Origin: Kiritimatiellia bacterium
GTDB taxonomy: Bacteria > Verrucomicrobiota > Kiritimatiellia > RFP12 > UBA1067
Direction of reading: 5' to 3'
NCBI GenBank assembly: GCA_017652705.1
Contig: JAGCAM010000079.1
Location: 11,475-75,474 of the forward strand
Length of the DNA: 64,000 nucleotides
The notes under the pieces are model-generated. The model did not search any database. It was given only the letters and a program-made list of their open reading frames with translations, and was not told the origin of the DNA. Below are positions 41,190-59,799 of the stretch, one piece after another (the stretch's first letter is position 1; each line of letters begins with the position of its first letter). The position numbers and the translations under genes were made by a program.

Positions 41190-42688
41190 AGCGCCTTGAT
41201 GAAGATGTTGCGCCACTCGGTCGGATCGCCGTGGCACTGCAGCTCGATCTGCTCGCTCGCCGGCACCGGTTTGTCCCGCTGCCACAGGTTTTCAAGCACG
41301 GTGTTGTCGACGACGAGTTCGCCGTTCAGCCAAACCGACACCTTGTCACCGCGCATGATCACGTGGAAACGATTCCAGTCGCCCACCTGCCGGTCGGCGA
41401 TTTTAAGTGCCTTCGAGAGATTGCCGGTCTTGGCCGTGTTGTTGTTGTAAAGGCCGCCGGAACCGATGTGCCACTGGTTGTGGGCGTCCCAGATCTGCAC
41501 CTGGGGCACACCGCGGAGGTAAAGCCCCGAGTCGCCGGTGATGGACATGATGCGCCAGTCGCACCACATTTCGAAATCGCCGTAATTGCGCTTGGTGGCG
41601 AGGGAATATCCGCCGCGGTAGCCGTCGAAGAAGAGGTTGCCGTTCCTGACATGCCAGTGCTCGTCGCGGCCCTTGTCGGCGATTTTCTGCATTTCGGCGT
41701 TCTTTTCGGCGGTGGCGGCCGCGCGCGTCGCGGGCTTGTCGAAACCGCCTTCGGTCGTGACGCCCTTCCACATCTTAGCGATCTGGCCGGGGCAGCCGTC
41801 GAAGTAGGTCTCGAAACCGGCGGGCGCGGCCATCTTCTGACGCGGACAGACTTCGCCCATCTTCGCGTCGTCGGGAAGCGGCTTGATGCGGATGTTCTTC
41901 CATTTCACGTTGCTGCCGTGGCCGAGCCAGCCGATGCGGCCGCGCCGGTTGTGGAGACCGGGGTGTTTGCAGTGGTCGGGAGTGTCGCCGTCGCCCTTGA
42001 ATTTCGAGAGGTCGGCCTTGGTGATCAGATAGCCGTTGAGATAAACCTCGATCTCGCTGCCGATGACCTTGACTTCCTCGAAATTCCACATGCCGGGTTT
42101 GCGCACGTAGCTGCCGCCGCCGGTGAAGTTTTTCTCCTTGCCCCAGATCTGCTTGTCGACGTTGTCGCGCAAAGACGGCACTACGCCGTAGACCGAACCG
42201 GTGTACTGGTAGGGCTTAAGCTTGTCGACCTTGTTCGAAGCGTCGTAGTAACTCGAACCGCCGTCGTCGAGCAGCTGCAGCTCGCACATCGCGTGGTACG
42301 CCGCGTCCTTGTCGGGGTCGGAGATGCGTATGCCGAGACCGTTGTTGCCGTTCGGCGGCATGGCGAACTCGAAGCGGAGTATGAAATTGCCGAACTCCTT
42401 CGCGGTGACGAGATCGCCGCGCTGACCCGGGGGCAGTTTGCGGTCGGGGAAGCACTGCAGCACCCCCGGTTCCTTCGGATCTACCCCGTACATGGCGGTG
42501 GCGCCCTGCCACCCCTCGAGGTCGTAGCCGTTGAAGAGCGACACGAAACCTTCGTTCACCGAATCGGGATAGACCCGTCCGCACTCGCAGGAAGGCGCAC
42601 ACGCGCCCTTCTCCGCGCTGTTCAAACCGCAGCAACCCGCGGTCGCCAGAACCGCGGCGCCCGCCGCGGCGATAGTTTTGATTTTCAT
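41186..42688 (-). CDS. lipoprotein with two DUF1080 (3-keto-disaccharide hydrolase-like) domains
   Basis: The ATG at 42688 (MKIKTIAAAG..LATAGCCG) has an SD GGAGGA and an ATGA overlap with the nadC stop. The block FVSLFNGYDLEGW...GNNGLGIR occurs twice. Confidence 0.8.
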   Translation of the reverse strand: MKIKTIAAAGAAVLATAGCCGLNSAEKGACAPSCECGRVYPDSVNEGFVSLFNGYDLEGWQGATAMYGVDPKEPGVLQCFPDRKLPPGQRGDLVTAKEFGNFILRFEFAMPPNGNNGLGIRISDPDKDAAYHAMCELQLLDDGGSSYYDASNKVDKLKPYQYTGSVYGVVPSLRDNVDKQIWGKEKNFTGGGSYVRKPGMWNFEEVKVIGSEIEVYLNGYLITKADLSKFKGDGDTPDHCKHPGLHNRRGRIGWLGHGSNVKWKNIRIKPLPDDAKMGEVCPRQKMAAPAGFETYFDGCPGQIAKMWKGVTTEGGFDKPATRAAATAEKNAEMQKIADKGRDEHWHVRNGNLFFDGYRGGYSLATKRNYGDFEMWCDWRIMSITGDSGLYLRGVPQVQIWDAHNQWHIGSGGLYNNNTAKTGNLSKALKIADRQVGDWNRFHVIMRGDKVSVWLNGELVVDNTVLENLWQRDKPVPASEQIELQCHGDPTEWRNIFIKAL

Positions 42689-43590
42689 TTTGTCCTCCAT
42701 TCCAATGTTAAATCTATGGAACCCGCCGAGTGGGTGAGGCAGCCGAGGGATATGGCCGTCACGCCGGTCGCGGCGACTTTGCGGGCGGTCGCCAGGGTGA
42801 TGCCGCCGGACGCCTCGGTCTTAACTCTGCCGCGGCACATGGCGACGCAGCGCTTCATGTCCGCGCACGACATGTTGTCGAGCATGATCCATTCCGGCAG
42901 CGCCTTGAGGGCGCTCGCGCACTCGCGCGGCGTTTCAACCTCCACCTCCACCGCGAGCCGCGGAAACTTCTTTCTGGCGGCGGCGACGGCGAGGTCAAGC
43001 GCGTCGGGATCGCCGCCGCGCCAGAGCCGGCGGTGGTTGTCTTTGATCAGCACCCGGTCGAACATGCCGAACCGGTGGTTCGAACCTCCGCCGCACAGAA
43101 CGGCGTATTTGTCGAACATCCTGAGCCCGGGGGTGGTCTTGCGGGTGTCGAGTATGACCGTGCCGTAGTGCGCCGTGGCGTCGACGAACTTCTTCGTGAG
43201 CGTGGCCGTCGCGCACATCCGCTGCATGAAATTGAGCGCGGTCCGCTCCGCCGCGAGAATCGATCTCGCTCTGCCGCGGAAGACGAGAATCGGCTCGCCG
43301 CCGCGCACCGTTGAGCCGTCCTTTTTGAGTATCCGCACTTTCACGGCATGATCCACCGCCTTGAAAACCGCAGCGGCCACGGTCGCGCCGGCGACGACGC
43401 AGCCGGCCCCTCGCGCGTATATCTCGCCGTCGGCGAAGACGTTCTCCGGCACCAGCGCCTCCGAAGTCGCGTCAATGCGCCGCCGGGACGCCGAACCGCG
43501 GCCTCCGGGCACGAGGTCTTCGTCCAGCGCGCGCAGGACGGCCTCTTTGGCCGGCGCGGAGCGCATAACGTCCTTCATCTTCGCGGCCAT
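42685..43590 (-). CDS. nadC: nicotinate-nucleotide diphosphorylase (carboxylating)
   Basis: 301 aa with AERTALNFMQRM, LDTRKTTPGLR and LIKDNH. Confidence 0.92.
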   Translation of the reverse strand: MAAKMKDVMRSAPAKEAVLRALDEDLVPGGRGSASRRRIDATSEALVPENVFADGEIYARGAGCVVAGATVAAAVFKAVDHAVKVRILKKDGSTVRGGEPILVFRGRARSILAAERTALNFMQRMCATATLTKKFVDATAHYGTVILDTRKTTPGLRMFDKYAVLCGGGSNHRFGMFDRVLIKDNHRRLWRGGDPDALDLAVAAARKKFPRLAVEVEVETPRECASALKALPEWIMLDNMSCADMKRCVAMCRGRVKTEASGGITLATARKVAATGVTAISLGCLTHSAGSIDLTLEWRTK

Positions 43591-43875: not shown

Positions 43876-44868
43876 TCAGCGGAACCCCTTGTTCCGCAGG
43901 AATTGGTAGCTCGGCAGCACCGCCGAGAGGTCTTCGAAGTGGCGTTCGCACTCGACCACGTACCACTTGACCCCGTCGGCTTCTGTCGCCACGATGAGCC
44001 CGTCCCAGTCGACCGGGACTGCCCCGGGCCTGCCGGGCTGGCCGAGAATGGCGTCGAACTCTTTGACGTCCTTGCCCATGCCGTTCTCCTTAGCGTGGAT
44101 CGTGGGCGAGCGGTGCGGGTATTTGCGGAACTGCTCCTTGGGGTCGACGCCCGCGCAGGTGGACCAGCCGACATCCTGCTCCATGCAGACGTTCTGGCTG
44201 GTGTTGGAGAAGAAATAATCCCAGAACGAAGTGCCGTCGGTCATCTTGATGCCGTGTTCCCACGTGTGGTTGTGCAGGCCGATGCGGCAGCCGTACTTCG
44301 CCGCGACTTCGGCGCCCTTGTTGTAGAGTTCGACGAGACGCTTGGTGAATTCGTCGATCTCCTTCGTCGGCTGGCAGGTTTCGCCGCCCTGGCCGGTGGA
44401 CCATTTCGCGCCCGGGGGAATGTTGCCGCCGCCGGGGCAGATGATGAGGTTGTTGCCGTAGGCGAGGTTGAAATCGCACGTCGCCTTCATCACGTCGGGG
44501 TTGAACGACCATTCTGCGGTGTTGAAACCGAATTCGCCGTTGCCGACGTGGGTTCCGCAGGCGACGAGCCCGCTGTCGGCGAGCATCTTGCGCAGCGCGA
44601 TCGCGTCGTTGCCGTAGTAGCCGGCGAATTCCACGCCGGTGTAGCCGATCGCCGCGACGTCGTCGAGCGCCTTGGCGAGACCGGCGGCGGGAACAGTTTC
44701 CTTGCCGTCCTTGTCTTTTCTGCCGCCGATGTAGGCGTGGATGGAGTAGAGCTGCAGCGCGAGCCGCGCCTGAAGGGATCTGCCGCTAGAGCAGATGCAG
44801 CCCGGCAGCGCGACCGCGGCTCCGCCGGCGCCGATCGCCGACAGAAACTGTCTTCTTGATACGTTCAT
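43876..44868 (-). CDS. TAT-exported xylose-isomerase-like TIM-barrel protein (sugar phosphate isomerase/epimerase family), lipoprotein
   Basis: 330 aa with a twin-arginine signal MNVSRRQFLSAIGAGGAAVALPGC. It has the AP endonuclease 2/xylose isomerase-like layout. Confidence 0.8.
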   Translation of the reverse strand: MNVSRRQFLSAIGAGGAAVALPGCICSSGRSLQARLALQLYSIHAYIGGRKDKDGKETVPAAGLAKALDDVAAIGYTGVEFAGYYGNDAIALRKMLADSGLVACGTHVGNGEFGFNTAEWSFNPDVMKATCDFNLAYGNNLIICPGGGNIPPGAKWSTGQGGETCQPTKEIDEFTKRLVELYNKGAEVAAKYGCRIGLHNHTWEHGIKMTDGTSFWDYFFSNTSQNVCMEQDVGWSTCAGVDPKEQFRKYPHRSPTIHAKENGMGKDVKEFDAILGQPGRPGAVPVDWDGLIVATEADGVKWYVVECERHFEDLSAVLPSYQFLRNKGFR

Positions 44869-44917
44869 CTTTATTTTCCTTTCTTTTATTTTGGGTGAAT
44901 CTGGTCAAATCCTGTTG

Positions 44918-46315
44918 TCACCAGCCGGAGAGACGCGGCAGATTGAGCCGCCCGTTGGCCGGGGTCGATCCGTCGAACCTGCCGGCGGAGGCGTTCCAGA
45001 CAAGCTTTTTGCCCGAGTCGAAGAGCGCCGCGACGCCGAGCAGCGAACACTGCGTCATCGCGCCGGCGTACACGAAATCGCTGCCGACTTTCGGCCCGCC
45101 CGCGACAGCCCTCACGAACTCGATGTACGGCTTGTCGTCGGGTGCGTCGCCCGGTATGCGCTCGTACTTGCGCGGGGGCAGCGCGTTGTCGGCGCGCATC
45201 TTTTCAAGAGTGCGGTCCGGCAGCAGCCGCAGGAAGTTCGCCCCGTGGTGGCCGTACTCGATCACCCCCTTCGTGCCGTAGACGAACGCGCCGTTGCACA
45301 TCCAGTTGCGGCCGGCGCGGGCCTCCTTGCTGTTGTACGGCGGAAAGTACTTCATGTCGTCAAGATACTGCGAAGGCTTCGGCACGTCTTTGCACGCGAC
45401 GCCGTCGTACCATACGAGCTTGAACGGTTTGCCGTCCGGCTTCGTGTAGCAAAACGTCGTCTTCACCCCTTTGGGGAACGTGTCACCGTGAACTTCGGGC
45501 CGCCAAGAACCAACCACGTCGGCCTGCACGCTCAAAGGCAGACCGAAGCCGAACGTCCAGAAAATCGGATCCATCAGATGGCAGCTCCAGTCGCCCAGCG
45601 TGTTGCAGCCGTACATCGTCCAGCACCGCCACGTTCCCGGACAGTACTTCGGGTAGTACGGCCGGTGCGGAACCGGCCCCTGCCACTGGTTCCAGTCGAG
45701 CGTGGATGGAACCTCCCACTTCTTTTTGAGCTCGGCGAGGTCGTCCATGTACGAATACACGGCCGGGCACCAGATGTGCGCCTCGGTGACTTCCCCGATG
45801 AGCCCGGCTTCAATCCATTCGCGGAAGTCGCGGATGGTGTCGAAGGCGTGGCCCTGGTTCATCGCCTGGGTGACGAGTTTCGGATTCTCCTTCGCCGCCT
45901 TGAGCATCGACTCCATTTCACTGAAGCTCTGGCAAAGCGGCTTTTCGCACTGCACGTGCTTGCCCCGCTTCAGGCATTCGACCGCCATGGTGGCGTGCCA
46001 GTGGTCGGGCGTGCCGATCAGCACCGCGTCGATGTCGCGGTCCATTTTGTCGAGCATGGTGCGGTAGTGGGAAAAGAACGGCACGGCGGAGTGGGCCTTG
46101 CGCATCGCCTCGCTGCGCTTGAGGTCGACGTCGCAGAGCGCCACGAACTTCGCGCCGGCTTTTTCCAGCCCGCGCATGTCGTCGGCAGGTCGGCCCCCGC
46201 AGCCGATCGCCGCCATCTGCACCGTCTCATTGGCGCGGTAGGCAGTCGCACAGCCAGAAAATATCATCGGGAACCCGAACGCCGAAGCGCCCCGTATGAA
46301 TTCACGTCTGTTCAT
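44918..46315 (-). CDS. TAT-exported Gfo/Idh/MocA oxidoreductase, lipoprotein
   Basis: 465 aa with MNRREFIRGASAFGFPMIFSGC, a Rossmann MAAIGCGGR, TPDHWH and CEKPL. Confidence 0.85.
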   Translation of the reverse strand: MNRREFIRGASAFGFPMIFSGCATAYRANETVQMAAIGCGGRPADDMRGLEKAGAKFVALCDVDLKRSEAMRKAHSAVPFFSHYRTMLDKMDRDIDAVLIGTPDHWHATMAVECLKRGKHVQCEKPLCQSFSEMESMLKAAKENPKLVTQAMNQGHAFDTIRDFREWIEAGLIGEVTEAHIWCPAVYSYMDDLAELKKKWEVPSTLDWNQWQGPVPHRPYYPKYCPGTWRCWTMYGCNTLGDWSCHLMDPIFWTFGFGLPLSVQADVVGSWRPEVHGDTFPKGVKTTFCYTKPDGKPFKLVWYDGVACKDVPKPSQYLDDMKYFPPYNSKEARAGRNWMCNGAFVYGTKGVIEYGHHGANFLRLLPDRTLEKMRADNALPPRKYERIPGDAPDDKPYIEFVRAVAGGPKVGSDFVYAGAMTQCSLLGVAALFDSGKKLVWNASAGRFDGSTPANGRLNLPRLSGW

Positions 46316-46360: not shown

Positions 46361-49300
46361 TCACTTCACCGTGACGGTCTTCTCGGACGAGACTCCGGTC
46401 ATCACGTCGGTTACGACGATCTTCCAGCGGTCGACGCTTTCGTTGAACGCCACGCGGAAGTCGCACGACGCCCTGCCCCCCTTCGCGTCCACCAGCTTGA
46501 ACTTGACGGGCGCGAGGCGCTCGAAGCTTTCGCCCTCCGGCGGCAGCATTTCGAAGCGCAGCACGTGGGTGACGGGCTTCGCCCCCGCGTCGCCGGCGAC
46601 GACCGCCGCCTCCACGTGCAGGTCGGAACCCTTCGCCGCCGAATCCGGCGCGTTCACCTCCACCGCCTTCACCTCGTAGGGCAGCAGCGCGTAGAAGCAC
46701 TCGTCGAGCCCGTTGAACACCACCGGTATCGCGTCGGTGCGGCCGACGGGTCTGCCCGCGCGGATGTCGTAGACCCAGTTCGTCGAGGCGAGTTTGACCT
46801 CCGCCTTCATCGGGAAGCGCTCGCAGCTGCGGCCCGACTTCTCCACTCCGAGGCACACCGCGCCGTCGCGCGTGAAGCGCGTGAATTCGGCCGGCACCGT
46901 CACTCCGTCGGCCACCGCCCGCGCGAACGGCCGGTGCCCGCAGGCCGCGAAAACGCGGCGGAACGCCTCGTTCGCCGCGCCGAGTTCGCCGCGCCCGTCC
47001 AGAAACGGTATCGCAGCCATGTTGATGTTGAACAGCACCGCCCTGCCCTTGCCGAATTCGCGGACGAAAAACGCCTCCGCGCCGGACGCCGCCCGGGCAT
47101 GCGCCTTCGCGCCGGACGCCCGCAGCGACGCGTCGACCAGAACCCCCTTGATCTCCACCGGCGCGGCGGCGAGCCCCTCCACGCGCAGCGTCGCGTGCTC
47201 GACCTTCGCCTCCGGCGAGAGCCGCTTCACGCCGAAGAGTTCGTCCAACGGAGGCTTCGCGTGGCGGACACCGTCCACCCCGTGCGTCGCGATGCGCGCG
47301 TCGGCGATGACGCTGCCGCCGTTCCTGACGAACGAAATTATCTCCTCGATCTCCTTGTCGCTCAGGATCTGCGTGTAGCCGAGCACCAGCGTCTTGACGC
47401 CTTTCCTGAGGTCGCCCTTCTCGATCATTTCGCTCGAAATGCCGTCCCACTGGAAACCGTGCGCGACCACCAGCCCTTCAAGCGTGCCGCGGGCCTGGCC
47501 GTGGGTGCTCATCTCTTTCACGAGCGGGCTGAGATGGCCGGAGTTGCGGCTCACCAGCACGCGGATGCCGTCGTTCTCGCGCTTGGAACGGGTGGTGAGC
47601 GCCACCGGCCCGCGCATGATTTCGCGGTACGTCGCGAACATCCACCCCGCGCGGCCGGGGTTCACCGACCCGTCGCCTTCGACCATGTAGCTGCCCAGCC
47701 AGAACCAGCTGAAATTGCACCCGTCGAGAAGGCCGTGCCATACCTGCCGTTCGCGAATCGGCCTCTTTACCTTCTTGCCGCCGTACACGCCGATGCACTC
47801 GCCGATGTAGCGGTGCGGAACTGCCCGCGCGAGCTGGATGTCTTCGCTGCCGGCGTAGGGGCAGACCGTGTTGAGGTGCTTGAGCACGTCGTACTTGATG
47901 TTGCCGAGCGTCGACGCGCCGAACCCGAAGCCGATCGACCGGTCGCGCGAACAGACCCCGCGCGCGATCGCCGCCGCCTGGTCGACGAACGCGTCCTCGA
48001 GGTACGTCTGCCGGTCGATCGCCGGCGCAAACACGCCGTCCTTCTGCCGTTCCTCTATCAGCTTCTGCTCGATTTCGAGAAAATCCTTCACCGACGTCTT
48101 CCACACGGCGTTGAGCTTGTCGACCGTGCCGTACTTCTTCTTCAGCCAGAAGAGGAAGTTCACGTACTGCGGCGACTCGGCGGGTTTCGCCGCCTTCACC
48201 GCCTCGAGCGTGACGTCTTTCCAGTCGGCGAACTTCGTGTTCAGATGCGCGTTCATCACTTCCACCCTGTCGTACGCGTCGCGCATCGCCGCGACGACCG
48301 TCGGCAGTTCGTTCGGCGTCAGGTTCTCGACCATCTTCGCCACCGAATCGCGGTCGGTTCCGAACAGCCGGAAGTCCTTCACCCCCTGCCTGCGCAGGTT
48401 CTCGGCCTTGCGCTCGCGGTACGCCGGCACCCAGTCGGGTATGGTGTTCTGAATTACGCTCGGTGCACCCGAGTCGTCGCCGAGCGAAATGAAGCGCCCG
48501 TTGATTTTCCGACACTGCTCGGCGTGTTCCGCGTAGCGGCGTTCGAGATGCTTCAGCCACCAGCGGCTTGAAATCGAGCAGCCCCTGTCGGAGGTGCTGC
48601 CGGGTATGCGGTCGCGGATGACCGGGTCGCCGCCGCGAAAGCACGATCTGACGTCGCTGGTCTCCCACAGATCAATGCCGCAGTACTGGAAGTATGCAAG
48701 GCGAAGCTCAGCGAATTCGCCGCTGCCGCACGGGTCGGTGGTGAAAATGCGGTAGTCCGCGCCAGCGTCGCCGCGGTGGAGAAAACAGGTCAGCCGCCTG
48801 ACGTCGAAAACCCGGTCGCCTTCAAGGTAGACGTCGATGAAGTTGCAGCTCCAGTCGAGAAACTTCTGGTCGAAGACGATTTCGACCGAATCCGCCGAGG
48901 CGTCGACCGCCGCCTCCACCCGCGAAATGACGCGGTTGCGCACGTCGCGCAGATCGCCGCGCACTTTGAGCCCGCCCGCCGACGCGCCGTTCACCGCCGC
49001 CCTGACCGCGATCTTCTCGCCCGGGTTGAACGTGCCGCGCCCGGCCGAGAACCGAACTTCGCCGAACTCCGGCGGCGCGATCTCCGCGCGGCAGTAGGCG
49101 CCGCCGCAGCCGCACTTGACCGGCTTGCCTGGCTTGATCACCAGTTCGCCTGAAGCGAAATCGAGCAGCTTGCCGCCCGCCTCGAGCCGCGCGTCGACCG
49201 TGTAGCGGCCCGCGCCGAGCCGCGGCGCCGCGAGCGTCACGTGGTTGGTGCCCGCCGGCAGATCCACCGCGGGGCGGTCCGGGCCCGCCAGAAGCCTGCC

Positions 49301-51379
49301 GAACGTGTCGCGTACCCGCCAGACGACTTCGCCCTTCCACGCCGGGCCCGCGGTGGTCAGCGTCGCCGCCGCACCGGTGCCGCCGTCCTGCACCGGAGCG
49401 CCTACTTCGAGGCAGCGGCGTTTGCCGCGCATGCCCAGCCCCGTCATCACCGCGCGGGCCGCCGCGGCGAGGCAGTATTCGTCTTCGTAGGCGATGTCCG
49501 GCGTGAGCGTCCAGCCGGGCGTGATCAGCGTCGTCAGGCACCACCCGGCCGCCCTGCCCGGATTGTAGCAGGCGAACGAACCCTTGCCGAACGCCGCGGT
49601 CGCGACGCCGGGCAGCCGGCAGTCGATCGACTTTTCAAGATCGAACCTCCCGCCGCCTTCCGGACGCACGAGTTTCACCATCCCCTTCGGGTTGCCCCGC
49701 GCGAGTTCTTTTTCGTGCTCGACTTCGCGGCCGAACACGTTGTTGCCGTTCACCACCACCACCTTCGCCCCTTCGAGCATCCGCCCGTAAAGCCAGCACT
49801 GCAGCTCCATCGGCCACGCATCGATCGACGTGCCGAGAAAGACGAACTGTTCGTACGGCGTCTCCTTGAGCATCCGCTCGAGCATCTTGCGCTTCTCCGG
49901 CGCGAGCATCAGGCCTTCGTAGAAATAGTCGCTCGTCTTGCCGAGACCGCGGTCGAAACACTGAAAAACGTCCGCGTCGACGTCAAGCCGGTTCATCAGC
50001 GCCCACGCCTCCCACGCGCCGTGCTGGTGGGCGCAGACGAGCGTCTTGCCGGACGCCCGCTCCGCGAGGTTCTTCGCCCACGGGAACAGCGTCGGTTCGC
50101 TGTTCCGGCGTTCCCACGGCTTCGGCGTTCGCTCCGGCTCCTCGGCGAATTTGTCCGGCGCGTCGGCCGGCGGGTTGATCTTCACCGGCACGCGCACTTT
50201 CTTCTCCGTGCGCATCAGGTTGCGCACGCACTCCCAGTAGGCGTTTTCGAACGCGGCGTCCCACGCTTTGTTCTTGCGTTCCAGCTCCGAAACCGCCGCG
50301 ATGTCCAGCTTCGCCGCGGCAAGCACGTTCGACCTGGCCGTCTCGTATTCGCCCCGCTGGCTGGATATCCGCCTGAGGACGTCGCCGAAGAACCCCTTTC
50401 TCGGCGGCTCGGTTATTGATGCTACGAAATCGTCGAGACGCTTGAGTTTCGCCCCGCAGCCGGCTATGCACTCCTTGCCCTTGGCGAGATAGCTGAGCCG
50501 CGACTCGCGGCCGTGGTCGACCACCACGTATTCCGAATCGGTCTGCACGTAGATCGTGCGCCGGTCGAGATCAGGATACGCCAGCCGCAGCCCGTCAACC
50601 GGGTTCTTCGGCGTCTTCTCCACCAGCACGCACTTGCCGTAGAGCTCGGCGTTGTGGTGGGTCTGCCCCTGGGTCGACCAGCCCAGCACCGCCATCGCTT
50701 CGCGCGTCGAGTCGGGCGGCAGTCCGGAACCAGGTTTCGGATACCACGTCTTCCAGAGCCTGATACGCGCGGGCTCCATGCCGAAAATGTAGCCGACTTT
50801 CGCTTTCATCTCCAAGTGCGTCAGCGCGAAGCGCGCCTCCACCTGCCAGTAGTCCTTGCCGATCGTGTACGCCTTGTCCCAGTCGGAGTTGAGCCCGTAG
50901 TTGCTGTCGGCGAGAATGCCCCAGCCGAAGTCGTAGTACCAGATGATCTCCTTCTCGTCGGTCGGGTTCAGCCAGATCTGGAACTTCGTGTGGCGGTCGT
51001 TGTTGCCGTCGAGGTGCAGTTCGACGTTGTCCCGCCAGATGAAGTTCCGCCGGCGGTCGTTGCGCGCGTCGTTGAACCGCTTCATGTTCTCCGGGGTGTC
51101 CTCCCAGCAGGTGGCCAGCACGTAAAAGTACTTGTCGTCCCAGAGACACCTGAATTCGGTGCGCGGCGTCTTCCACCGCGTGTCGATGGAGACCGTCGTG
51201 CAGCCGAATTCCGTCAGCGGCACGGCGCGTTTCCAGTCGGCCTCGTCCATCTTGCCGTCGATGACGACGGGGGCGGTCGCCTTCTCGACGAAGTGCAGTT
51301 TGAAACTGTCGGTCGTCTTGTCGGCCGCCTGCGCGGCCGCCGCGATCGAAACCGCTGCCAGTATGGTCGTCTTTTTCAT
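46361..51379 (-). CDS. giant secreted multidomain protein: N-terminal CBM9-like domain, Ig-like modules, GH42-like barrel and amidotransferase-like domain
   Basis: 1672 aa with a signal peptide. It has VIDGKMDEADWK (CBM9-like), FLFWLKKKYGTVDKLNAVWKT (GH42-type block) and VKTLVLGYTQILSDKEIEEIISFVRNGGSVIAD (GH42 M-domain-like). The function is not assignable. Confidence 0.75.
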   Translation of the reverse strand: MKKTTILAAVSIAAAAQAADKTTDSFKLHFVEKATAPVVIDGKMDEADWKRAVPLTEFGCTTVSIDTRWKTPRTEFRCLWDDKYFYVLATCWEDTPENMKRFNDARNDRRRNFIWRDNVELHLDGNNDRHTKFQIWLNPTDEKEIIWYYDFGWGILADSNYGLNSDWDKAYTIGKDYWQVEARFALTHLEMKAKVGYIFGMEPARIRLWKTWYPKPGSGLPPDSTREAMAVLGWSTQGQTHHNAELYGKCVLVEKTPKNPVDGLRLAYPDLDRRTIYVQTDSEYVVVDHGRESRLSYLAKGKECIAGCGAKLKRLDDFVASITEPPRKGFFGDVLRRISSQRGEYETARSNVLAAAKLDIAAVSELERKNKAWDAAFENAYWECVRNLMRTEKKVRVPVKINPPADAPDKFAEEPERTPKPWERRNSEPTLFPWAKNLAERASGKTLVCAHQHGAWEAWALMNRLDVDADVFQCFDRGLGKTSDYFYEGLMLAPEKRKMLERMLKETPYEQFVFLGTSIDAWPMELQCWLYGRMLEGAKVVVVNGNNVFGREVEHEKELARGNPKGMVKLVRPEGGGRFDLEKSIDCRLPGVATAAFGKGSFACYNPGRAAGWCLTTLITPGWTLTPDIAYEDEYCLAAAARAVMTGLGMRGKRRCLEVGAPVQDGGTGAAATLTTAGPAWKGEVVWRVRDTFGRLLAGPDRPAVDLPAGTNHVTLAAPRLGAGRYTVDARLEAGGKLLDFASGELVIKPGKPVKCGCGGAYCRAEIAPPEFGEVRFSAGRGTFNPGEKIAVRAAVNGASAGGLKVRGDLRDVRNRVISRVEAAVDASADSVEIVFDQKFLDWSCNFIDVYLEGDRVFDVRRLTCFLHRGDAGADYRIFTTDPCGSGEFAELRLAYFQYCGIDLWETSDVRSCFRGGDPVIRDRIPGSTSDRGCSISSRWWLKHLERRYAEHAEQCRKINGRFISLGDDSGAPSVIQNTIPDWVPAYRERKAENLRRQGVKDFRLFGTDRDSVAKMVENLTPNELPTVVAAMRDAYDRVEVMNAHLNTKFADWKDVTLEAVKAAKPAESPQYVNFLFWLKKKYGTVDKLNAVWKTSVKDFLEIEQKLIEERQKDGVFAPAIDRQTYLEDAFVDQAAAIARGVCSRDRSIGFGFGASTLGNIKYDVLKHLNTVCPYAGSEDIQLARAVPHRYIGECIGVYGGKKVKRPIRERQVWHGLLDGCNFSWFWLGSYMVEGDGSVNPGRAGWMFATYREIMRGPVALTTRSKRENDGIRVLVSRNSGHLSPLVKEMSTHGQARGTLEGLVVAHGFQWDGISSEMIEKGDLRKGVKTLVLGYTQILSDKEIEEIISFVRNGGSVIADARIATHGVDGVRHAKPPLDELFGVKRLSPEAKVEHATLRVEGLAAAPVEIKGVLVDASLRASGAKAHARAASGAEAFFVREFGKGRAVLFNINMAAIPFLDGRGELGAANEAFRRVFAACGHRPFARAVADGVTVPAEFTRFTRDGAVCLGVEKSGRSCERFPMKAEVKLASTNWVYDIRAGRPVGRTDAIPVVFNGLDECFYALLPYEVKAVEVNAPDSAAKGSDLHVEAAVVAGDAGAKPVTHVLRFEMLPPEGESFERLAPVKFKLVDAKGGRASCDFRVAFNESVDRWKIVVTDVMTGVSSEKTVTVK

Positions 51380-51419
51380 TCGCTTTTCTCCCCCGCGCCG
51401 CGGAATCTTTCCGCAACGC

Positions 51420-54400
51420 TCATTTCACCGGTGCCGCGAGCGTCACCGCCGCCGCGCTTTCAAGCCCGGTCGCCATGTCGCGCAGCACAACTTTGTAACG
51501 TCCGGGCGCGTCGGAATACGGGAACTGGAAGTCCACCTTCGTCTTGCGGTCCGCGCAGAACAGCGTTTCGCGGTTCGCGATGCGCGCGCCTGCGGGCGAC
51601 TCAGTCTCCAGCCGGTATACCGAGCCTTTGCGCAAAACCGCCGTGTCCAGCGAAATCTCGTCGCCGGGCGCGATTTCCGTCTTCGTCAGCCTGACTTCGG
51701 GCGGCCGCTGCTCGGTCTTGAACGCCGCGTAGAGCGCATGCGGTTTCTCGAGACGCGCGATCGTTATGCGGTCGGACCGGCCGATGAAACCGACATCGGA
51801 TTCATACACCCACTTCTCCTCGCCGAGCTCGATTTCCGCCCGCTTGCCGAGATTGTAGGTGCTGGTGACGAACCCGAGCAGCGTCATGTCGCCGAGTTCG
51901 CGGATCCGGAACTTGACACCGTCCGTCGAAATCCCGGAAAGCTTCTCCTTCACCGTTATCCCGCTCTCGGCGAGCAGCGCGGTTATCCGGTCGTCTTTCC
52001 AGCCGCGCTTGAGCTCCTTCCATAGACCGGAGAGCGGCGGTTTTTCGCGGCGCGCGAGGTATCCGTCGAGAACGCCCGGTTCGCAGTCGGAATATATCTT
52101 GCCGCCGCGTTTCGCGAACTTGGCGAGCGCGGCGGTTTCGCCGTCGTCGAGGGCGACCGCGCCGGAGAGAAACAACGCCTTCATCTCGTCCAGCCTGCAC
52201 AGCGACCGCCGGGTGACGATCGCCGTGTCCATGCCGTTGCGGTAGCAGTAGTCGATGAACGCGCCGTTGCCCTCGCGGGCGGACGGAAAATCGTCCGAAA
52301 GCGTCGACGCGTGGTTGGAGGCGTGGGAATAGTAGATCGCGAAGGCGCTTTTCCGCATCGGCACCCGGCACAGCAGCGCGCCGATCCCGCGCGACAGCGG
52401 CCTCCACGTGGGCAGCATGCGCTTCACGTACGGTGCCGGCTGAAAATCGCTCGACATTCCGGACTCCGCGCTCGCGGGGTCCATCTGGAACCAGAGGTCG
52501 GCGTTGAGGGTTCCGCACAGCACGTACCCCCACTGCTCCGCGGCGAAACCGTCGCGCGGCGAGCGTTGGTAGCCGCCCCACCAGATGCCGCGCAGGCAGC
52601 GCGGCGCGATGTTGCGCACCAGTTCGTCGTCGACCTTGTTGCCGTACGGCCCCCAGAACTCCAGTTTCGAAAGCGTGTATTCGATGTCGGCGCCGGGCGA
52701 CCCCTCCGCGCCGCAGCGCGCTTTCGGGTCGCGCTTCTTGATTATCGCCGTCAGTTCGTGGAATGTGTCGGCGTAGAGGTGCTCCGCGTACTGCACCTGG
52801 TCGTACCACGTCACCCAGTCGTTCGCCGCCCTGGACGCTTTCACGCGCACGTGCGGCGCCTCCGCGAAGTCCGCTATGTTGGTGCCGTGCGCCCGGTTGT
52901 ACGCCGCAAGCGTGCCGTAACGCTTCTTCAGATAATCGCGGTAGTACCCTTCGCTCTCGGCGTCGCCGAAGCCGATGTCGGACGAATACCCGCACTCGTC
53001 GCCGAAACTCCAGGCGAGCGGTCCGTACGGCAGCGTTGCGTCGATTCTCTTGTTGTAGAAACGCGCGAGCCGCTCGCGGACCGCCGGCCGGTGCACGTTG
53101 AGGTCGTGCCCGTTCGCGTCCCACCACTGCTTGATTTCGGGATCGCCGCGCGACGATTTCGGTATCGGGCATTGCGTCGTCCACACCGTGCCGCTGGGAC
53201 CGGCGGCGAGGCACACGCGCGTCGAATACGGCAACGCCCGACCGTTGAATATCGCGCTCAGCGAGCCGGACGACAGATGGTTGTTGTAGCCGATTTCATC
53301 CATCAGCGGGGGCGCGAAGAGTTCCGCGAGATTGCCTGGGCCGATGCCGTCCCAGCAGATCATCGCGTAGTCTTCGAAACGGTGCGTCGGGAAGAACACC
53401 AGTTTCTTCACCTTCGCCGCCGCGCCCCCGTCGGCCTTCCTCAACGTCACGTCGACGCACCCCGCCTTCGTCGGGAACGGCTTCGCGGCGATCTGATACC
53501 TCACGCTCCGCGCGCCGCCGCCCACCGGAATCTTGCACCTGGCCCGCACCTGGCGGTAGGGCATGTCGCGCAGCAGCACATCGACCGTCCACTTCTCCCC
53601 ACGAGGCACGGGCTTCTCCCACGCGATCACCGTGTCGAACCGGCAGCCCTCCGCTACCACCATCCTGTTCGTGCCGTTGACGGTCATCGCCCCGACCGGG
53701 CTCTGCACCGTAAACTTCCTCACCGACGCGAAATCGTCGCAGCCGCCGCTCCCCGGCACCACGTCGACGTAGTAGTCGCCCCCGGAGTAACCGGATATGT
53801 CGACCGCGAACACGTTGCGCCCGGCCTTGACCGGCGCCGTCTCGTCGACCAGCAGTTCGTTGTCAGACGATCTCACCCGGTACTTCACCGAATCGCACGC
53901 GCCGCGGGGCGCGGCTTCCACGGTGAACGGATACAGCTCGGTGCCGAGCGGCAGCGGCTCGGCCACGCCGGCGGCCTGCGCGAATTTAACCGTCGACGCC
54001 GGGTTGCGCCCCGCCGCGTAACGCGCCGCGTTCATGAAATACGTCGACCGCGTCTCGTAGTTGGCCCTCCACGCGAAGTTCCAGAATTCAGGCACCGGCA
54101 CGTCGATGCACACCACGCGCCCCCTGCCGTAGCGGTACGCCCTCACCGCCTTCGGCGACAGCCCCGCCGCCGACAGTATCCGCCGGCCTTCCTCGTCGGG
54201 CTCGAGGTACTTCTCGTCGGGCACCAGATCGCGCCCAACCCTGGAACCCCGCAGCACCAGCCCCACCCCCTCGTCATGCACCCGCCTGACGATCTCGCAG
54301 CGGTACACCGCCGGTATGCCGGACGGATAGGTGTAGTGAAGCACGATCACTTCGGGGTTTTTCGCCAGCATCGTTTCAAACTGACGGTAGCGCGGCAGCG

Positions 54401-55667
54401 GCAGCCCCCCGGTCACGAGATCGGCGAAGATCGACGAATATCCGAACGGCATCGGGAAAACATCCACCTTGAAATCGCAGCGCTGGCAGACCTCAACCGC
54501 ATCGCGGACCCACGGCCCGGTTCCGGTTATGCACAGCACCTTCGCCGCGCCGCCGAGCGATTTTTCGCACCATTTCAGATGCGGCGTCACGTACGCCGTC
54601 TGACTCGGATTCCACCTGAACCAGCCGTTGTGGCCGTCGTACTCCTTCGGCGGGTTGAGGTCGTATGTGCCGGCGAGCCGCAGCTTCTTCGGCGGCAGCG
54701 GCTTCTCCATCGTCGCCATCCTGACTATGTTGGTGAGCGCGGCGTCCGTCTCCGCCTTGTCCGCCGCGGCGATTTCGTCGAGCGTCTCCTGTATCGTCTT
54801 CGATATCTCGCGCGTGCCGTCTTCGTCGTGCAGGTAGCTCTTGCCGCCGATGCCGACCGCCCAGTACCCTGGCACGCGCTTCTCGATCATCTTAAGTATC
54901 GTCGCCGCGGCTGGCTTCGCCCCGTCGGAAAACTGCAGATACCCGAACCTGTTCGCCGAGAAAAAGCTCGCCATCACCGCCGAAGCGCCGAAATCGCCCC
55001 AGCCGCGCTCGGTGAAACGGAACCGCGAATGGTTGAACCGCCACACTTCGCCCGGCCTGACCTTCGCCCGCCCGTGCAGCGCCGCCCACGGTATGAAAAG
55101 CTCGAATTCCCAGCGGTCGCTGAATATCTTCGCCGCGCTCTTGATGCCGTCGGGCTTCCACGCCGGCTGCGGATTGTTCGGATCCATTCTCCAGAGCGTG
55201 GAACAGACGCCGAGCGAATTGACCATGAACTTGTAGAACCCGACCGCGTCGCCGACCGGATCAAGGTAAATCTCGCCGATGTCGTCGGTCTCGATCGCAT
55301 TGTCGCCGCTCTTGCGGGCCCGTTGCCGCAGATTGCCGGGCTGCGACTCGGGGTTGCACACCCCGACGTACAACCCCGCGTCGTCGTACATGATCGCCGC
55401 GCTCGTGCCCTCGAACTTGTGCTTCGGCCGCGGTTTTATGTATTCGTAGTAGACCGTGTGCGGCATGGCGTCTTTCCAGCACGCATCGTCGAGCGCCCCG
55501 TCGATTTTCGGCGGCGTCTTCGCCGGCATCGCCACGTCAAATGAGATTTCCGCCACGTCCACCGCCTGCACCGCCGCCGCGAACACTGCCGCAACGCCGC
55601 ATACCGCGGCCCTCAATGCCGTCAAGCGGCCGGTATGTCGGTCGACAAAAGATTTTTCAGTTTTCAT
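51420..55667 (-). CDS. giant secreted paralog of the 1672-aa protein (CBM9-like + GH42-like architecture)
   Basis: The start is reset to MKTEKSF (ATG at 55667), behind a TGGTAGAAT box. It has IDGALDDACWK, YYRDYLKKRYGTLAAYNRAHGT, SFGDECGY and ALAKFAKRGGKIYSD. Confidence 0.75.
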   Translation of the reverse strand: MKTEKSFVDRHTGRLTALRAAVCGVAAVFAAAVQAVDVAEISFDVAMPAKTPPKIDGALDDACWKDAMPHTVYYEYIKPRPKHKFEGTSAAIMYDDAGLYVGVCNPESQPGNLRQRARKSGDNAIETDDIGEIYLDPVGDAVGFYKFMVNSLGVCSTLWRMDPNNPQPAWKPDGIKSAAKIFSDRWEFELFIPWAALHGRAKVRPGEVWRFNHSRFRFTERGWGDFGASAVMASFFSANRFGYLQFSDGAKPAAATILKMIEKRVPGYWAVGIGGKSYLHDEDGTREISKTIQETLDEIAAADKAETDAALTNIVRMATMEKPLPPKKLRLAGTYDLNPPKEYDGHNGWFRWNPSQTAYVTPHLKWCEKSLGGAAKVLCITGTGPWVRDAVEVCQRCDFKVDVFPMPFGYSSIFADLVTGGLPLPRYRQFETMLAKNPEVIVLHYTYPSGIPAVYRCEIVRRVHDEGVGLVLRGSRVGRDLVPDEKYLEPDEEGRRILSAAGLSPKAVRAYRYGRGRVVCIDVPVPEFWNFAWRANYETRSTYFMNAARYAAGRNPASTVKFAQAAGVAEPLPLGTELYPFTVEAAPRGACDSVKYRVRSSDNELLVDETAPVKAGRNVFAVDISGYSGGDYYVDVVPGSGGCDDFASVRKFTVQSPVGAMTVNGTNRMVVAEGCRFDTVIAWEKPVPRGEKWTVDVLLRDMPYRQVRARCKIPVGGGARSVRYQIAAKPFPTKAGCVDVTLRKADGGAAAKVKKLVFFPTHRFEDYAMICWDGIGPGNLAELFAPPLMDEIGYNNHLSSGSLSAIFNGRALPYSTRVCLAAGPSGTVWTTQCPIPKSSRGDPEIKQWWDANGHDLNVHRPAVRERLARFYNKRIDATLPYGPLAWSFGDECGYSSDIGFGDAESEGYYRDYLKKRYGTLAAYNRAHGTNIADFAEAPHVRVKASRAANDWVTWYDQVQYAEHLYADTFHELTAIIKKRDPKARCGAEGSPGADIEYTLSKLEFWGPYGNKVDDELVRNIAPRCLRGIWWGGYQRSPRDGFAAEQWGYVLCGTLNADLWFQMDPASAESGMSSDFQPAPYVKRMLPTWRPLSRGIGALLCRVPMRKSAFAIYYSHASNHASTLSDDFPSAREGNGAFIDYCYRNGMDTAIVTRRSLCRLDEMKALFLSGAVALDDGETAALAKFAKRGGKIYSDCEPGVLDGYLARREKPPLSGLWKELKRGWKDDRITALLAESGITVKEKLSGISTDGVKFRIRELGDMTLLGFVTSTYNLGKRAEIELGEEKWVYESDVGFIGRSDRITIARLEKPHALYAAFKTEQRPPEVRLTKTEIAPGDEISLDTAVLRKGSVYRLETESPAGARIANRETLFCADRKTKVDFQFPYSDAPGRYKVVLRDMATGLESAAAVTLAAPVK

Positions 55668-55740: not shown

Positions 55741-57267
55741 TCACTTGCGGGGGACGGACTGCCCGCCGGCGCAGCTGCACGGCAGAAACCGCACGCGTAC
55801 CATCTCCGCGTCCGAAAGCCGGACGTCGTCAGGCAGCGGACCGGGCTTCTCCGCCGAAACGAAAGCGTTCGGCCGCGGCTCCTGGACGGGCACGACGATC
55901 CATTCCGACCCGTCGGCCTTCCGCTCGACGCGCCCGCCTTCCGCCGCAACGACCTGGCGGACGAGTTTTTCGCTGACGGCCTTGAGTTTGTCCCAGTCGT
56001 AGTCGGTGAATTCCCACTTTCTGCCGCGGTCGAGCTTTTCCAGAAACCCGCCCCGGATGCGGCTCGCGCCGAGCGAGGCTCCGAGCACTCCGCAGGCGGA
56101 GGCCGGGTTGCAGTCCGAATCGCATCCGCACCCGGTGGCGATCCTCGCGGTTTTCTCCATGTCGCCATCGCCCCACAGGTATCCGATCAGCACGTAAGCG
56201 CCGTTCAGCCTGACGTCGATGCCGGCAAAGGAGACGAATCTGCAGTTCTGGGGCGTGAAGTATTTGCGCGTAAGCGCCTCCCACGCAGTCCGCCAGTTCG
56301 ACGGGTCGCGCCCGTACGCCGCGAGCGTGTCGCGCACCATCTCCGCGTAGCGCGACTCCGCCGGAATGTGCCTGAGCGCCGAGCGCACGACCGAGGGGCG
56401 GTCCTGCGTGAAATACGCCTCGGCGTACATCGCCCCTACGAACTGCCCCGCGTAGAGCCCGTCGCCGTAGTTCATCACCGCGCCGAACCGGTTGCCCAGC
56501 CTGACCGCGCGGTTGGGCAGCCCCGGCGATATTATGCCGCTGAAGTCGGCCTCGATCTGATAGTCTATGTCGTACGGGGTCGGATGAAAGTTCGGGTGCC
56601 CGCAGCTGGGCGCCGCAATCCCGCGGCGCAGATTGTTCCGGGCGTTGTGGTTCGCGCACCACAGCCGGTACTTAGAATTGGCGAAGGCGATGCCGGCCTC
56701 GCGCGCGTCAACGTCGACTCCGCACCTGTCGAGCACGTCGAGAAACGTCATCTCCACGTAGAGATCGTCCTGGCAGAAGGTGCCGTTGATGATCTCGGCC
56801 TTGTATTCAGGCATGAGGTCGTCAGGCACGGGCTTGCCTACGCATTTGAATTCCGTCGGCGCGCCGTAGGCGACGCCGATGGACTGCCCGAGCCACGCGC
56901 CGGACATCCTGTCGCGGAATTGATCCATGGCGAGACTTCTCTCCGGCGCAGCCCTCTTCGCCCCTGTCTTCGGAACGGCTTTCTCTTTCGGCGCGGCGCC
57001 GACCCCTTCAATCGAATTCTTCTCCGCAACTTCGCCCTTTTCCGCACTTTTGACGGCGGCCCTCTCTTCGGGCAGATCGACTATCGTGCCGGGAAGCAGT
57101 TTCCTGCCCCCTATTACATTGCCGCCTTCTATAACCTCGACCGGCACGTCGCGCTTAAGCCGGTAGCTTCTGATCTTTCGGACGTCGTTTTGCTTCTCCT
57201 GCCCGAATGCCGCAAAAATCGCCAGCGCCATCGCGCAGACGGCCGTCATCGCTACGTGTTTCTTCAT
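55741..57267 (-). CDS. secreted ADP-ribosylglycohydrolase-family protein with N- and C-terminal extensions
   Basis: 508 aa with a signal peptide MKKHVAMTAVCAMALAIFAA. The core MSGAWLGQSIGVAYGAPTEF...QDDLYVEMTFL...YGDGLYAGQFVGAMYAEAYF...TGCGCDSDCNPA is typical of the ARH/DraG fold. Confidence 0.8.
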   Translation of the reverse strand: MKKHVAMTAVCAMALAIFAAFGQEKQNDVRKIRSYRLKRDVPVEVIEGGNVIGGRKLLPGTIVDLPEERAAVKSAEKGEVAEKNSIEGVGAAPKEKAVPKTGAKRAAPERSLAMDQFRDRMSGAWLGQSIGVAYGAPTEFKCVGKPVPDDLMPEYKAEIINGTFCQDDLYVEMTFLDVLDRCGVDVDAREAGIAFANSKYRLWCANHNARNNLRRGIAAPSCGHPNFHPTPYDIDYQIEADFSGIISPGLPNRAVRLGNRFGAVMNYGDGLYAGQFVGAMYAEAYFTQDRPSVVRSALRHIPAESRYAEMVRDTLAAYGRDPSNWRTAWEALTRKYFTPQNCRFVSFAGIDVRLNGAYVLIGYLWGDGDMEKTARIATGCGCDSDCNPASACGVLGASLGASRIRGGFLEKLDRGRKWEFTDYDWDKLKAVSEKLVRQVVAAEGGRVERKADGSEWIVVPVQEPRPNAFVSAEKPGPLPDDVRLSDAEMVRVRFLPCSCAGGQSVPRK

Positions 57268-58557: not shown

Positions 58558-59799
58558 TCAGCCGAGCCTGTCCACCGTCATAACGGGCAGATTCTTTCCG
58601 GAAGGCTCTTTCATCGGCTTCATGCCGGAGGGGTCGAATGCGTAGCCGTTCGAGCCGAGCGGCCAGACGGCCGGGGCGGTGTTGAGCACGGTTGCGCGAA
58701 AGCCCTGCATCGTCGCGCCGAGATTGCCGGTGTGGGAGCTGTTACAACCCTCGTTCTCGATCACGAACGGATTGCTGTATCCTTTCACCATGAGCGTCTC
58801 GAGGAACTTCGTCCAGTCGCAGGAATCGCTGCCGCCGAAACCGGGCAGGCGCGGCTCGTAATTGAGACGGTCCCACTCGTTGGCGGGCAGCGGCACACCG
58901 GCCTTCTTCGCGAGGACGGGGTCGACGCTCTGCATGGGGAACAGGCGTCCCCAGTGTACGGCTTCGGTTTCTCCGGGGAAGTTCCTCGTGCCCTTGATGT
59001 GGACGCGGCGCAGCTTTTTGAAATCCATCGCCTCGATAACCGCCGAAGGGTCGATGTGCTGCCAGATGTCGTGCGACGGATCGTACGTCTCTTGCAGCGC
59101 TGAGTCGTCGTCAAGCACGGCGTACATCAGTTTGCGCGCAGCGAGACACCCCGGCAGGTTGCAGTAGCAGTCGGTCGAAGACAGCGGCCGCCACCCCTCC
59201 ATCGGGCAGTTTTCGACGCAGAGCGTGACTCCGAGGTCCTTGGCGTATTTGAGAATCGGGGTGAAGACCTTTTTGAACTTCATGAGGTTCTTCTCGAAGC
59301 CGTTCTCCTCGTTGGAGAGGGCGACGTCGTACCCGACGAACGTTCCGCAGACGACGTCGTTCGCGTCGCCGCCGAGCAGCGCGGCGATGCGGACGAGTTT
59401 GAGGATGTGGTTCTGGTTGACGATCTGGAGTTCGGGTTTGCCGCCGATAAGGTTGTCGTAGGCGCCGACCGACATGCGCACGCCTTCGCGGTTGCAGATG
59501 TCGATCACCCGTCTGGCGTCGTCGATCGAGAAATTCTCGTAGTCGAGATGCGTGGCGACGTGATCCTGGCGGTCGGTGTCGCGGCGGAACACGCAGAGCT
59601 CGAGGCCCTGGGCTCCGACGCTTTTGGCGCGGGCGACGACGGTTTCGAAATTGCGGTCGGCGGCGAGCGCGCTCGACATCAGCCAGATCTGGTTGTTGCG
59701 CGGTTTCGGCTTCGCCTGCCGGGCTAACGCCGAACCGGGGGTGAACGCACCCGCCGCGGCTAGCGCGGCGGCGCTTTTGAAGAAGTCCCTCCTGTTCAT
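58558..59799 (-). CDS. TAT-exported xylose-isomerase-like TIM-barrel protein
   Basis: The start is reset to MNRRDFFKSAAALAAAGAFTPGSALA (twin-arginine). The track start at 59847 would overlap the upstream gene. Confidence 0.8.
   Translation of the reverse strand: MNRRDFFKSAAALAAAGAFTPGSALARQAKPKPRNNQIWLMSSALAADRNFETVVARAKSVGAQGLELCVFRRDTDRQDHVATHLDYENFSIDDARRVIDICNREGVRMSVGAYDNLIGGKPELQIVNQNHILKLVRIAALLGGDANDVVCGTFVGYDVALSNEENGFEKNLMKFKKVFTPILKYAKDLGVTLCVENCPMEGWRPLSSTDCYCNLPGCLAARKLMYAVLDDDSALQETYDPSHDIWQHIDPSAVIEAMDFKKLRRVHIKGTRNFPGETEAVHWGRLFPMQSVDPVLAKKAGVPLPANEWDRLNYEPRLPGFGGSDSCDWTKFLETLMVKGYSNPFVIENEGCNSSHTGNLGATMQGFRATVLNTAPAVWPLGSNGYAFDPSGMKPMKEPSGKNLPVMTVDRLG

Follow-up and report, generated by a model that had tools for sequence, protein, structure and literature searches.

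Two ancient paralogs from a gut Kiritimatiellae bacterium point to a putative glycosidase superfamily on the GH42 fold with a candidate catalytic carboxylate on β5 instead of β7

Introduction

The β-galactosidases of glycoside hydrolase (GH) family 42 are recognized by an NEY motif on β4 that supplies the acid/base, an ME motif on β7 that supplies the nucleophile, and a Tyr hydrogen-bonded to that nucleophile, the Tyr and the β7 site lying +127 and +157 residues from the β4 acid in Gal42 (PMC8573354). Here we describe two adjacent genes, A and B, in a 64-kb window (the whole 64,000-nucleotide stretch analysed, from contig JAGCAM010000079.1, to which all coordinates refer unless a locus is named) of a Kiritimatiellae metagenome-assembled genome from the gut, whose products appear to combine the GH42 scaffold with catalytic residues that have been relocated or altered.

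Both proteins resemble the GH42 enzymes 3TTS, 1KWK and 4UOQ in β4 and the next helix (F..WL..KYGT...LN..W), which align at profile level, and in the conserved β6 Tyr, at a sequence identity of only 12–13%. They differ from these enzymes in that the Asn of NEY is an Asp and the β7 ME is absent; A has in addition an extra conserved acid on β5, and B has an Asp for the acid/base Glu and a 90-aa insertion. GH42 enzymes are mostly cytoplasmic, whereas A and B appear to be exported and carry about 750–860 extra N-terminal residues, made up of carbohydrate-binding module family 9 (CBM9)-like, α/β and immunoglobulin (Ig)-like modules, ahead of the GH42-type scaffold.

Three further systems bear on the comparison. 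GlmA, an archaeal GH35 exo-β-D-glucosaminidase, recognizes the 2-amino group of glucosamine through Asp178 (PMC6566704); unlike A, it keeps a β7 nucleophile, Glu347, and has no N-terminal modules and no reported conserved β5 acid. The GH151 α-L-fucosidase ALfuk2 (6TVK), which like A and B consists of a barrel, a Rossmann-like domain and a β-sandwich, has an Asp nucleophile at the end of β4 and an acid/base Glu on β6, and provides a precedent for a layout other than that of clan GH-A on a GH42-like scaffold (PMC10154630). Its barrel has no detectable sequence similarity to those of A and B, and its acid/base is assigned to β6, not β5. Finally, GH20 and GH123 (Asp-Glu) and GH84 (Asp-Asp), which use no protein nucleophile, share with A and B an adjacent acidic dyad on a triosephosphate isomerase (TIM) barrel. 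The dyad is present and invariant in the A and B families, and neither protein matched the family sequence signature or the catalytic-domain profile of GH20, GH84 or GH123.

Results

Gene A (51420..55667, minus strand; MBO7721745.1, locus tag J6T01_04980) runs from an ATG at 55667 to a stop at 51420, a GTG 14 codons upstream of the ATG also being open, and encodes 1415 aa followed by the stop codon. Gene B (46361..51379, minus strand; MBO7721744.1, locus tag J6T01_04975) lies head to tail with A and encodes 1672 aa. A first-pass annotation, made from the letters of this DNA alone, had placed both reading frames correctly, and every string that it quoted was found (IDGALDDACWK, IDGKMDEADWK, YLKKRYGTLAAYNRAHGT, WLKKKYGTVDKLNAVWKT, SFGDECG and SLGDDSG); its length for B was right, and its 1416 aa for A counted the stop.

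To place the C-terminal halves of the two proteins, AlphaFold2 models were built from family alignments for residues 745–1415 of A (predicted local distance difference test score, pLDDT, 83; predicted template modelling score, pTM, 0.86) and 850–1672 of B (pLDDT 90, pTM 0.88). The best fold matches of both models were GH42 structures, which fitted clearly better than GH151. Profile searches of the PDB returned 6ptm (E 2.7e-8), 7vkx (E 2.6e-6) and 4uoq (E 1.9e-5) for A, and the M domains of GH42 and GH164 (E 1e-9 to 1e-6) for B. In the models both proteins have the three-domain GH42 scaffold of TIM barrel, GH42M domain and β-sandwich. The predicted (β/α)8 barrel occupies 52359..53390 in A (about residues 760–1103) and 47594..48772 in B (about residues 870–1262), both on the minus strand, and is followed by a GH42M-like domain, which lies at 51954..52358 (minus) in A, where it is of the class I glutamine amidotransferase-like type, and at 46880..47593 (minus) in B, where Pfam GH42M was detected in 16 of the 21 family members. 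The first-pass annotation had described the same GH42-like barrel and M domain and had let the proteins end there; in both, β-sandwich domains come after the M-like domain. Sequence scores told a different story from the fold, in that A reached 11.2 bits against Pfam GH42 (PF02449), where the cut-off is 21, and B had no match, so that both fall outside the family by the Pfam gathering score. Some distant relatives do pass this threshold, via a partial β4–β5 match only. With no NCBIfam match for either protein and the name 'hypothetical protein' for both at NCBI, the earlier remark that neither copy belongs to a nameable family was borne out.

The two copies had been aligned by eye at SFGDECG in A (52989..53009, minus; residues 887–893, with D890-E891 invariant) and SLGDDSG in B (48467..48487, minus; residues 965–971, with S965, G967, D968, D969 and S970 invariant in 21/21 clusters), and this alignment proved sound. 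In the A model, helix α3 (861–881) leads into strand β4 (885–887) and then FGDE; in the B model, α3 (939–958) leads into β4 (963–968) and then DSG, placing the two motifs at the same β4 end. Profile alignment of the α3–β4 segments alone paired GDE with GDD (E 0.0027). Default full-length hhalign failed to pair the motifs because of a B-specific insertion that directly follows the motif (48182..48457, minus; ~90 aa forming five helices, residues 975–1066, with invariant W983 and Y1036). The non-equivalence of GDE and GDD that this default alignment seemed to imply was a misplacement: with the insertion excised, the barrels aligned at 98.7% probability (E 2e-16) and WSFGDECG matched ISLGDDSG residue for residue. 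By alignment and models, the two motifs are homologous positions. The further claim, that this is where GH42 enzymes carry the acid/base, was also supported, since a 20-sequence profile of the A β4–α4 region (vwnlGDEcgy) aligned with SWHVGNEYGC of the GH42 enzyme 4uoq (E 1.5e-4). The profile was required for this match; a single-sequence PDB search with the A β4 region gave none.

Both models contain exactly four barrel strands between β4 and the first strand of the M domain, and these were mapped one by one. On β5, A reads RCGA-E988, the glutamate lying in GAEGS at the end of the strand (52698..52712, minus) and being invariant in the A family, whereas B reads GFGFG-AS, with no acid at the E988 equivalent in the strand and loop GFGFGASTLGN (47900..47932, minus), in which N1160 is invariant. 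On β6, the invariant GH42 Tyr that follows the strand is present in both proteins, as Y1008 of EFWGPY in A and Y1175 of TVCPY in B, and each is invariant in its own family. On β7, at the GH42 'ME' position, A has Trp/Gly (WWGGY, within LRGIWWGGY; 52569..52595, minus) with no carboxylate, and B has Val/Tyr/Gly (GVYGG, within YIGECIGVYGG; 47777..47809, minus) with no conserved carboxylate at the strand end. On β8, A reads N1055-ADLWF and B reads N1222-FSWFW. The distances in A from the β4 acid to the Tyr (+117) and to β7 (+139) match the spacing of GH42. E1194 of B, the one acid close to this position, was considered as a β7 nucleophile and rejected, as it sits mid-strand and is Q or T in 4/21 family members.

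Strand order and spacing thus place both proteins outside the GH42 scheme: the β7 nucleophile of GH42 and of clan GH-A is predicted to be absent from A and B. The NEY motif is replaced by Asp-Glu-Cys in A, which keeps the Glu, and by Asp-Asp-Ser in B. Of the clan GH-A pair, Glu on β4 and on β7, only the β4 Glu is found, and in A only. The GlmA-type arrangement of GH35, Asp-Glu on β4 with Glu on β7, is likewise incomplete, A having the Asp-Glu and no β7 Glu. The idea of a GH42-type enzyme with one dead copy therefore had to be given up, since neither A nor B has the GH42 catalytic pair.

The same constellation was found across a large group of proteins. An exhaustive hidden Markov model search of 1.84 billion representative proteins with a profile of the A barrel and M domain, clustered at 50% identity, returned 3164 clusters at E<=1e-3, 1551 at E<=1e-10 and 355 at E<=1e-30. 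The impression that A belongs to a tiny family, left by word-indexed searches (27 and 21 hits), was dropped in view of this superfamily; rarity is a property of B only. For conservation, the best 150 superfamily clusters and the two families were aligned to the profile, and 169 sequences outside the B family covered both sites. Their β4 motif was GDE in 163, GNE in 4, GDD in 1 and GTE in 1. At the E988 position on β5 an acid was present in 169/169 (156 Glu, 13 Asp). In the β7 window an acid occurred anywhere in only 3/169, never at a conserved position, and 166/169 had none. The β6 WGPY and β7 WWGGY motifs were near-universal. With D890, E891 and E988 all present, A is a standard member of this superfamily.

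A scan of species-representative genomes located 36 superfamily loci, all from metagenome-assembled genomes, in Kiritimatiellae, Lentisphaerae/Victivallales, Planctomycetota, Armatimonadota, Latescibacterota, Poribacteria, WS1, Verrucomicrobiota and Gemmatimonadaceae. The genome that carries A and B has a third paralog, P0005 (J6T01_01100), an A-type protein with a C-terminal GH51-like arabinofuranosidase, and another A-type protein, P0057, is fused C-terminally to a GH29 α-L-fucosidase. These fusions suggest that the A-type module acts on arabinose- or fucose-decorated glycans. Literature searches, which did not cover CAZy, found no characterized family with these motifs, an absence of evidence only.

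The B family is narrow, consisting of 21 clusters that were recovered as the same set from the single sequence and from the family profile, and every source named for it belongs to the Kiritimatiellae. Two of the three signature carboxylates of the superfamily are changed in this family: the β4 Glu is an Asp, and the β5 acid is lost, being present in 0/21 clusters with G, C or A (mostly G or C) in its place. All 21 clusters have GDDS on β4, down to 30% overall identity, and the post-β4 insertion with its Trp and Tyr; besides the five motif residues, N1160, Y1175, N1222, W1225 and W1227 are invariant. The invariance of GDDS and of these other residues of the catalytic face in 21/21 clusters indicates, at the level of sequence conservation, that the B site is remodelled and under selection, a functional site and not a decayed one. 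Since the copies differ at β4 and B has no β5 acid, a difference in function between A and B is likely. The first-pass annotation had seen that the copies differ at a catalytic motif and had offered a binding or an altered-specificity role for one of them; altered specificity or chemistry is the part we favour, whereas a dead B is at odds with the invariant GDDS.

A comparable state was noted in an unrelated uncultured bacterium. At locus L014, the gene at 9879-13439 encodes FGDDTG with Asn at the β5 position and no B-type insertion, its best matches being ordinary superfamily members of about 1200 aa; 3.6 kb away, the gene at 2676-6239 encodes a canonical member with GDE and the β5 Glu, mirroring the A/B contrast. 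The two cases, which are anecdotal, hint that the GDD state lacking a β5 acid arose more than once.

Outside the barrel, the homology of A and B extends over nearly their whole length. BLASTP of A against B gave three collinear segments, comprising the barrel and M domain (E 3e-14; 24% identity over 324 aa), the N-terminal CBM9-like module (E 6e-7) and the C-terminal β-sandwich (E 3e-6), and profiles of the A and B families (24 and 21 sequences) aligned over 1346 columns at 100% probability (E 3e-75). These scores put the relationship far beyond chance and uphold the common module order proposed at first reading; with the β-sandwich added, it runs CBM9-like module, α/β module, Ig-like region, GH42-fold barrel, GH42M-like domain and β-sandwich. 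Because orthologs elsewhere are 74–75% identical to each protein while A and B are only 20–24% identical to each other, their divergence appears to be old, which identifies them from sequence as ancient paralogs and not a recent tandem duplication.

The CBM9-like N-terminus, also recognized earlier, was supported by Pfam CBM9_1. In B (50615..51307, minus; about residues 25–255) the match scored 28.5 bits (E 1.6e-6), above the 23.4-bit cut-off, and in A (54918..55550, minus; about residues 40–250) it was weak (12.7 bits, below the cut-off; E 0.12). CBM9_1 matches were found in 19/24 A-family members (E<=0.01) and 21/21 B-family members. By the gathering score B thus belongs to CBM9, and carbohydrate binding is predicted. 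Next comes a conserved α/β-looking module of ~200 aa, at 53973..54605 (minus; about residues 355–565) in A and 49400..50107 (minus; about residues 425–660) in B. The two modules are homologous (hhalign 98.6%), as the first-pass annotation had implied, although its label 'flavodoxin/amidotransferase-like' has no counterpart in PDB or Pfam, where we found no relatives of the module. An identity as a second GH42M or GATase1-like domain was likewise unsupported by hhalign against M domains, the PDB profile search and Pfam. The module may represent a new domain. The Ig-like region of B contains a Cys-rich stretch at residues 750–770 (window about 49070–49130; KCGCGGAYCR, family consensus CGCxPxC) that is absent from A and could be a metal or disulfide site.

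Both translations begin with signal-peptide-like N-termini, that of B having the textbook Sec-type form, MKKTTILAAVSIAAAAQA followed by AD, and the two proteins are accordingly predicted to be exported multidomain proteins. The genes are separated by 40 bp (51380..51419, minus strand). A promoter and terminator scan, whose other counts were at chance level and uninformative, found no terminator-like site between them, and co-transcription of the two genes is plausible.

The A–B arrangement itself is not conserved. No second superfamily member was found within 7–10 kb at six other B-family loci (L001, L002, L004, L042, L043 and L044) or at two other A-family loci (L003 and L005), and the gene upstream of P0029, a 75%-identical B ortholog, is GH123-like and not A. 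A conserved A–B operon pair was rejected on these grounds: the two are not an obligate pair, their adjacency is not conserved elsewhere, and synteny does not back the suggestion that one copy is the partner of the other. Other phyla do have further cases of divergent superfamily members in adjacent pairs, at L014, L023, L040 and L041, which makes local duplication or clustering a habit of the family. The pairs in L040 and L041 are directly adjacent, and that in L023 is nearby, on opposite strands. The tandem arrangement of A and B is thus probably meaningful only loosely.

The window as a whole is dense in carbohydrate-active enzyme (CAZyme) genes, including GH127, GH2, GH3 and four genes with DUF4838, a domain of unknown function (DUF). 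The DUF4838 genes lie on the minus strand at 7992-9929, 24913-27669, 30401-33757 and as part of 19131-24380. The third of these encodes a protein of 1118 aa with a fused N-terminal GFO/IDH/MocA NAD-binding domain. The last (minus strand) is a 1749-aa open reading frame that joins a GH127 β-L-arabinofuranosidase, with its catalytic, middle and C-terminal domains, to DUF4838 and a complete GH2, an unusual triple-CAZyme fusion. DUF4838 proteins are related to two families of substrate-assisted N-acetylglucosaminidases, GH163 and GH185 (PMC10570127).

The gene immediately upstream of A (55741-57267, likewise on the minus strand), from which 73 bp separate it, encodes a 508-aa protein of the ADP-ribosylglycohydrolase family. 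Genes A and B are flanked by two sets, each of a GFO/IDH/MocA oxidoreductase, a xylose-isomerase-like TIM barrel with a twin-arginine translocation (TAT) signal, and a 3-keto-disaccharide hydrolase (DUF1080); these lie on the minus strand at 43876-46315 and 58558-62482, plus 41186-42700. The sets presumably resemble oxidative (3-keto) glycoside-cleavage pathways, and their adjacency to A and B may be incidental, such genes being very abundant in genomes of the Planctomycetes–Verrucomicrobia–Chlamydiae (PVC) group.

Elsewhere, the neighbours of A-type genes encode GH78, DUF4838, pectate-lyase-fold and Laminin_G_3 proteins, and those of B-type genes encode GH123-like (2/7 loci), DUF4838 (1 locus), sulfatase, metallophosphatase (2 loci) and GH2 proteins. 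The GH123-like genes lie immediately upstream of the B-family genes, at L001 7832-9871 and L004 1-2325, and the DUF4838 gene lies directly downstream of the B homolog in L044. A GH123 protein, P0196, was also seen to carry a CBM9-like module resembling those of A and B. By their annotations, the neighbours all point to complex-glycan breakdown.

Discussion

What is new here, as judged from alignments and models, is an uncharacterized family that combines the GH42 fold with a catalytic constellation that has been moved or altered. With moderate confidence, we regard A and its relatives as a putative glycosidase superfamily on this fold in which the second catalytic carboxylate is on β5 instead of β7. 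Relative to GH42, the β4 Asn-Glu is Asp-Glu, Trp/Gly (WWGGY) stands by strand mapping where GH42 has its β7 nucleophile Glu, and a new, essentially universal carboxylate lies at the end of β5. A would most likely be an active glycosidase, with E988 on β5 acting together with E891 or D890 on β4. Two layouts can be drawn: E891 could serve as the acid/base with E988 as the nucleophile, or D890 could serve as the nucleophile with E988 as the acid/base. The second of these is the β4/β5 arrangement of clan GH-H, and it also has a likeness to GH151 with its β4 Asp nucleophile and β6 Glu.

B would be a derived, narrow sub-lineage that kept the β4 Asp, changed the Glu to Asp (D968-D969), lost the β5 acid and gained a helical insertion of ~90 aa beside the active site. 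Its site most likely still handles sugars, with a chemistry or specificity unlike that of A. One possibility would be substrate-assisted cleavage of N-acetylhexosaminides through the Asp-Asp dyad, as in GH84, to which the GH123 and DUF4838 neighbours lend weak support. In its most specific form, our proposal is that A-type proteins constitute one or more large unrecognized GH families, with the nucleophile gone from β7 and catalysis by β4 Asp-Glu and β5 Glu, and that B-type proteins represent a further, Asp-Asp-only step, at which chemistry would be substrate-assisted or catalysis would have ceased; we advance this version tentatively, as quite possible.

Several points weigh against this proposal. 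How D890, E891 and E988 lie relative to one another in space, and which residue occupies the GH42-nucleophile position, were read from strand order, spacing and DSSP, not from superposition, and the A model has pLDDT <50 at model residues 287–290 and 325–328, in the β7 and β8 loops. The β5 acid could have a role in structure or substrate binding and none in catalysis, and B could bind without catalysing, its invariant residues being those needed for binding. The heterogeneous genomic contexts name no single consistent substrate. No member of the A or B family has been characterized, and the activity of the two proteins, together with the acting residues, substrates and mechanism, is wholly inferred.

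That A is an enzyme and B a pseudo-glycosidase, a lectin- or scaffold-like protein that only binds glycans as a partner of A, seems to us somewhat unlikely. B does lack two of the three superfamily carboxylates (β4 E to D, β5 E to G or C), only 40 bp free of any terminator separate the genes, and L014 again has a GDD member with no β5 acid near a canonical GDE/E member, 3.6 kb away. Such a partner would, however, hardly be expected to hold GDDS invariant in 21/21 clusters at identities down to 30%, together with N1160, Y1175, N1222, W1225 and W1227, and an A-type neighbour was found within 7–10 kb at 0/6 other B-family loci, that of P0029 included.

The absence of the β7 nucleophile from both proteins would suit a pair of N-acetylhexosaminidase-like enzymes, in which the β4 dyad polarizes the 2-acetamido group and supplies the acid/base, no protein nucleophile being needed. 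The dyad is at the β4 end of a TIM barrel, as in GH20, and GH123-like genes upstream (L001, L004), a DUF4838 gene downstream (L044) and four DUF4838 genes in the window would fit such chemistry. We nevertheless judge it unlikely for A and B together, as it leaves the universal β5 acid of the A superfamily unexplained, and the fusions and neighbours of A-type genes point to arabinose, fucose and rhamnose glycans as much as to N-acetylhexosamine.

A resemblance to GlmA raises another reading of A, in which the Asp of Asp-Glu would recognize a protonated 2-amino sugar (glucosamine or galactosamine) and E891 would be the acid/base. GlmA has the same GH42-like three-domain architecture, and it has Asp-Glu in place of Asn-Glu, with the Asp binding the C2-NH3+ group (PMC6566704). 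Its retention of Glu347 on β7, which has no equivalent in A, makes this reading improbable, and the near-universal GDE in a very large, ecologically diverse superfamily is hard to square with one rare substrate class. That A and B are ordinary, merely diverged GH42 β-galactosidases is extremely improbable: their best fold matches are GH42 structures and they show weak Pfam GH42 and GH42M matches, but both are below the Pfam gathering threshold, the ME motif is missing, 166/169 relatives have no β7 acid, the Asn of NEY is replaced, and B has lost the acid/base Glu too.

The finding is of value chiefly for the large A-type superfamily, which is a candidate for a new family of glycoside hydrolases. 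If its members were inactive, they would be divergent GH42-like binding proteins of modest interest. The A/B pair offers a natural comparison for which carboxylates are needed, and if the β4/β5 reading of the superfamily is true, a known fold would have changed its mechanism at the level of the clan, and the window would show a migrating active site in two consecutive states next to each other. Should A-type proteins prove active, over 1000 clusters that are now called 'hypothetical', and that are concentrated in uncultured bacteria of guts, sediments and groundwater (PVC, Armatimonadota and related lineages), would form a new CAZyme family whose catalytic apparatus has moved, and a clear case of catalytic-residue migration on the TIM barrel. 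They would also supply a missing activity to models of how Kiritimatiellae and Lentisphaerae break down complex glycans.

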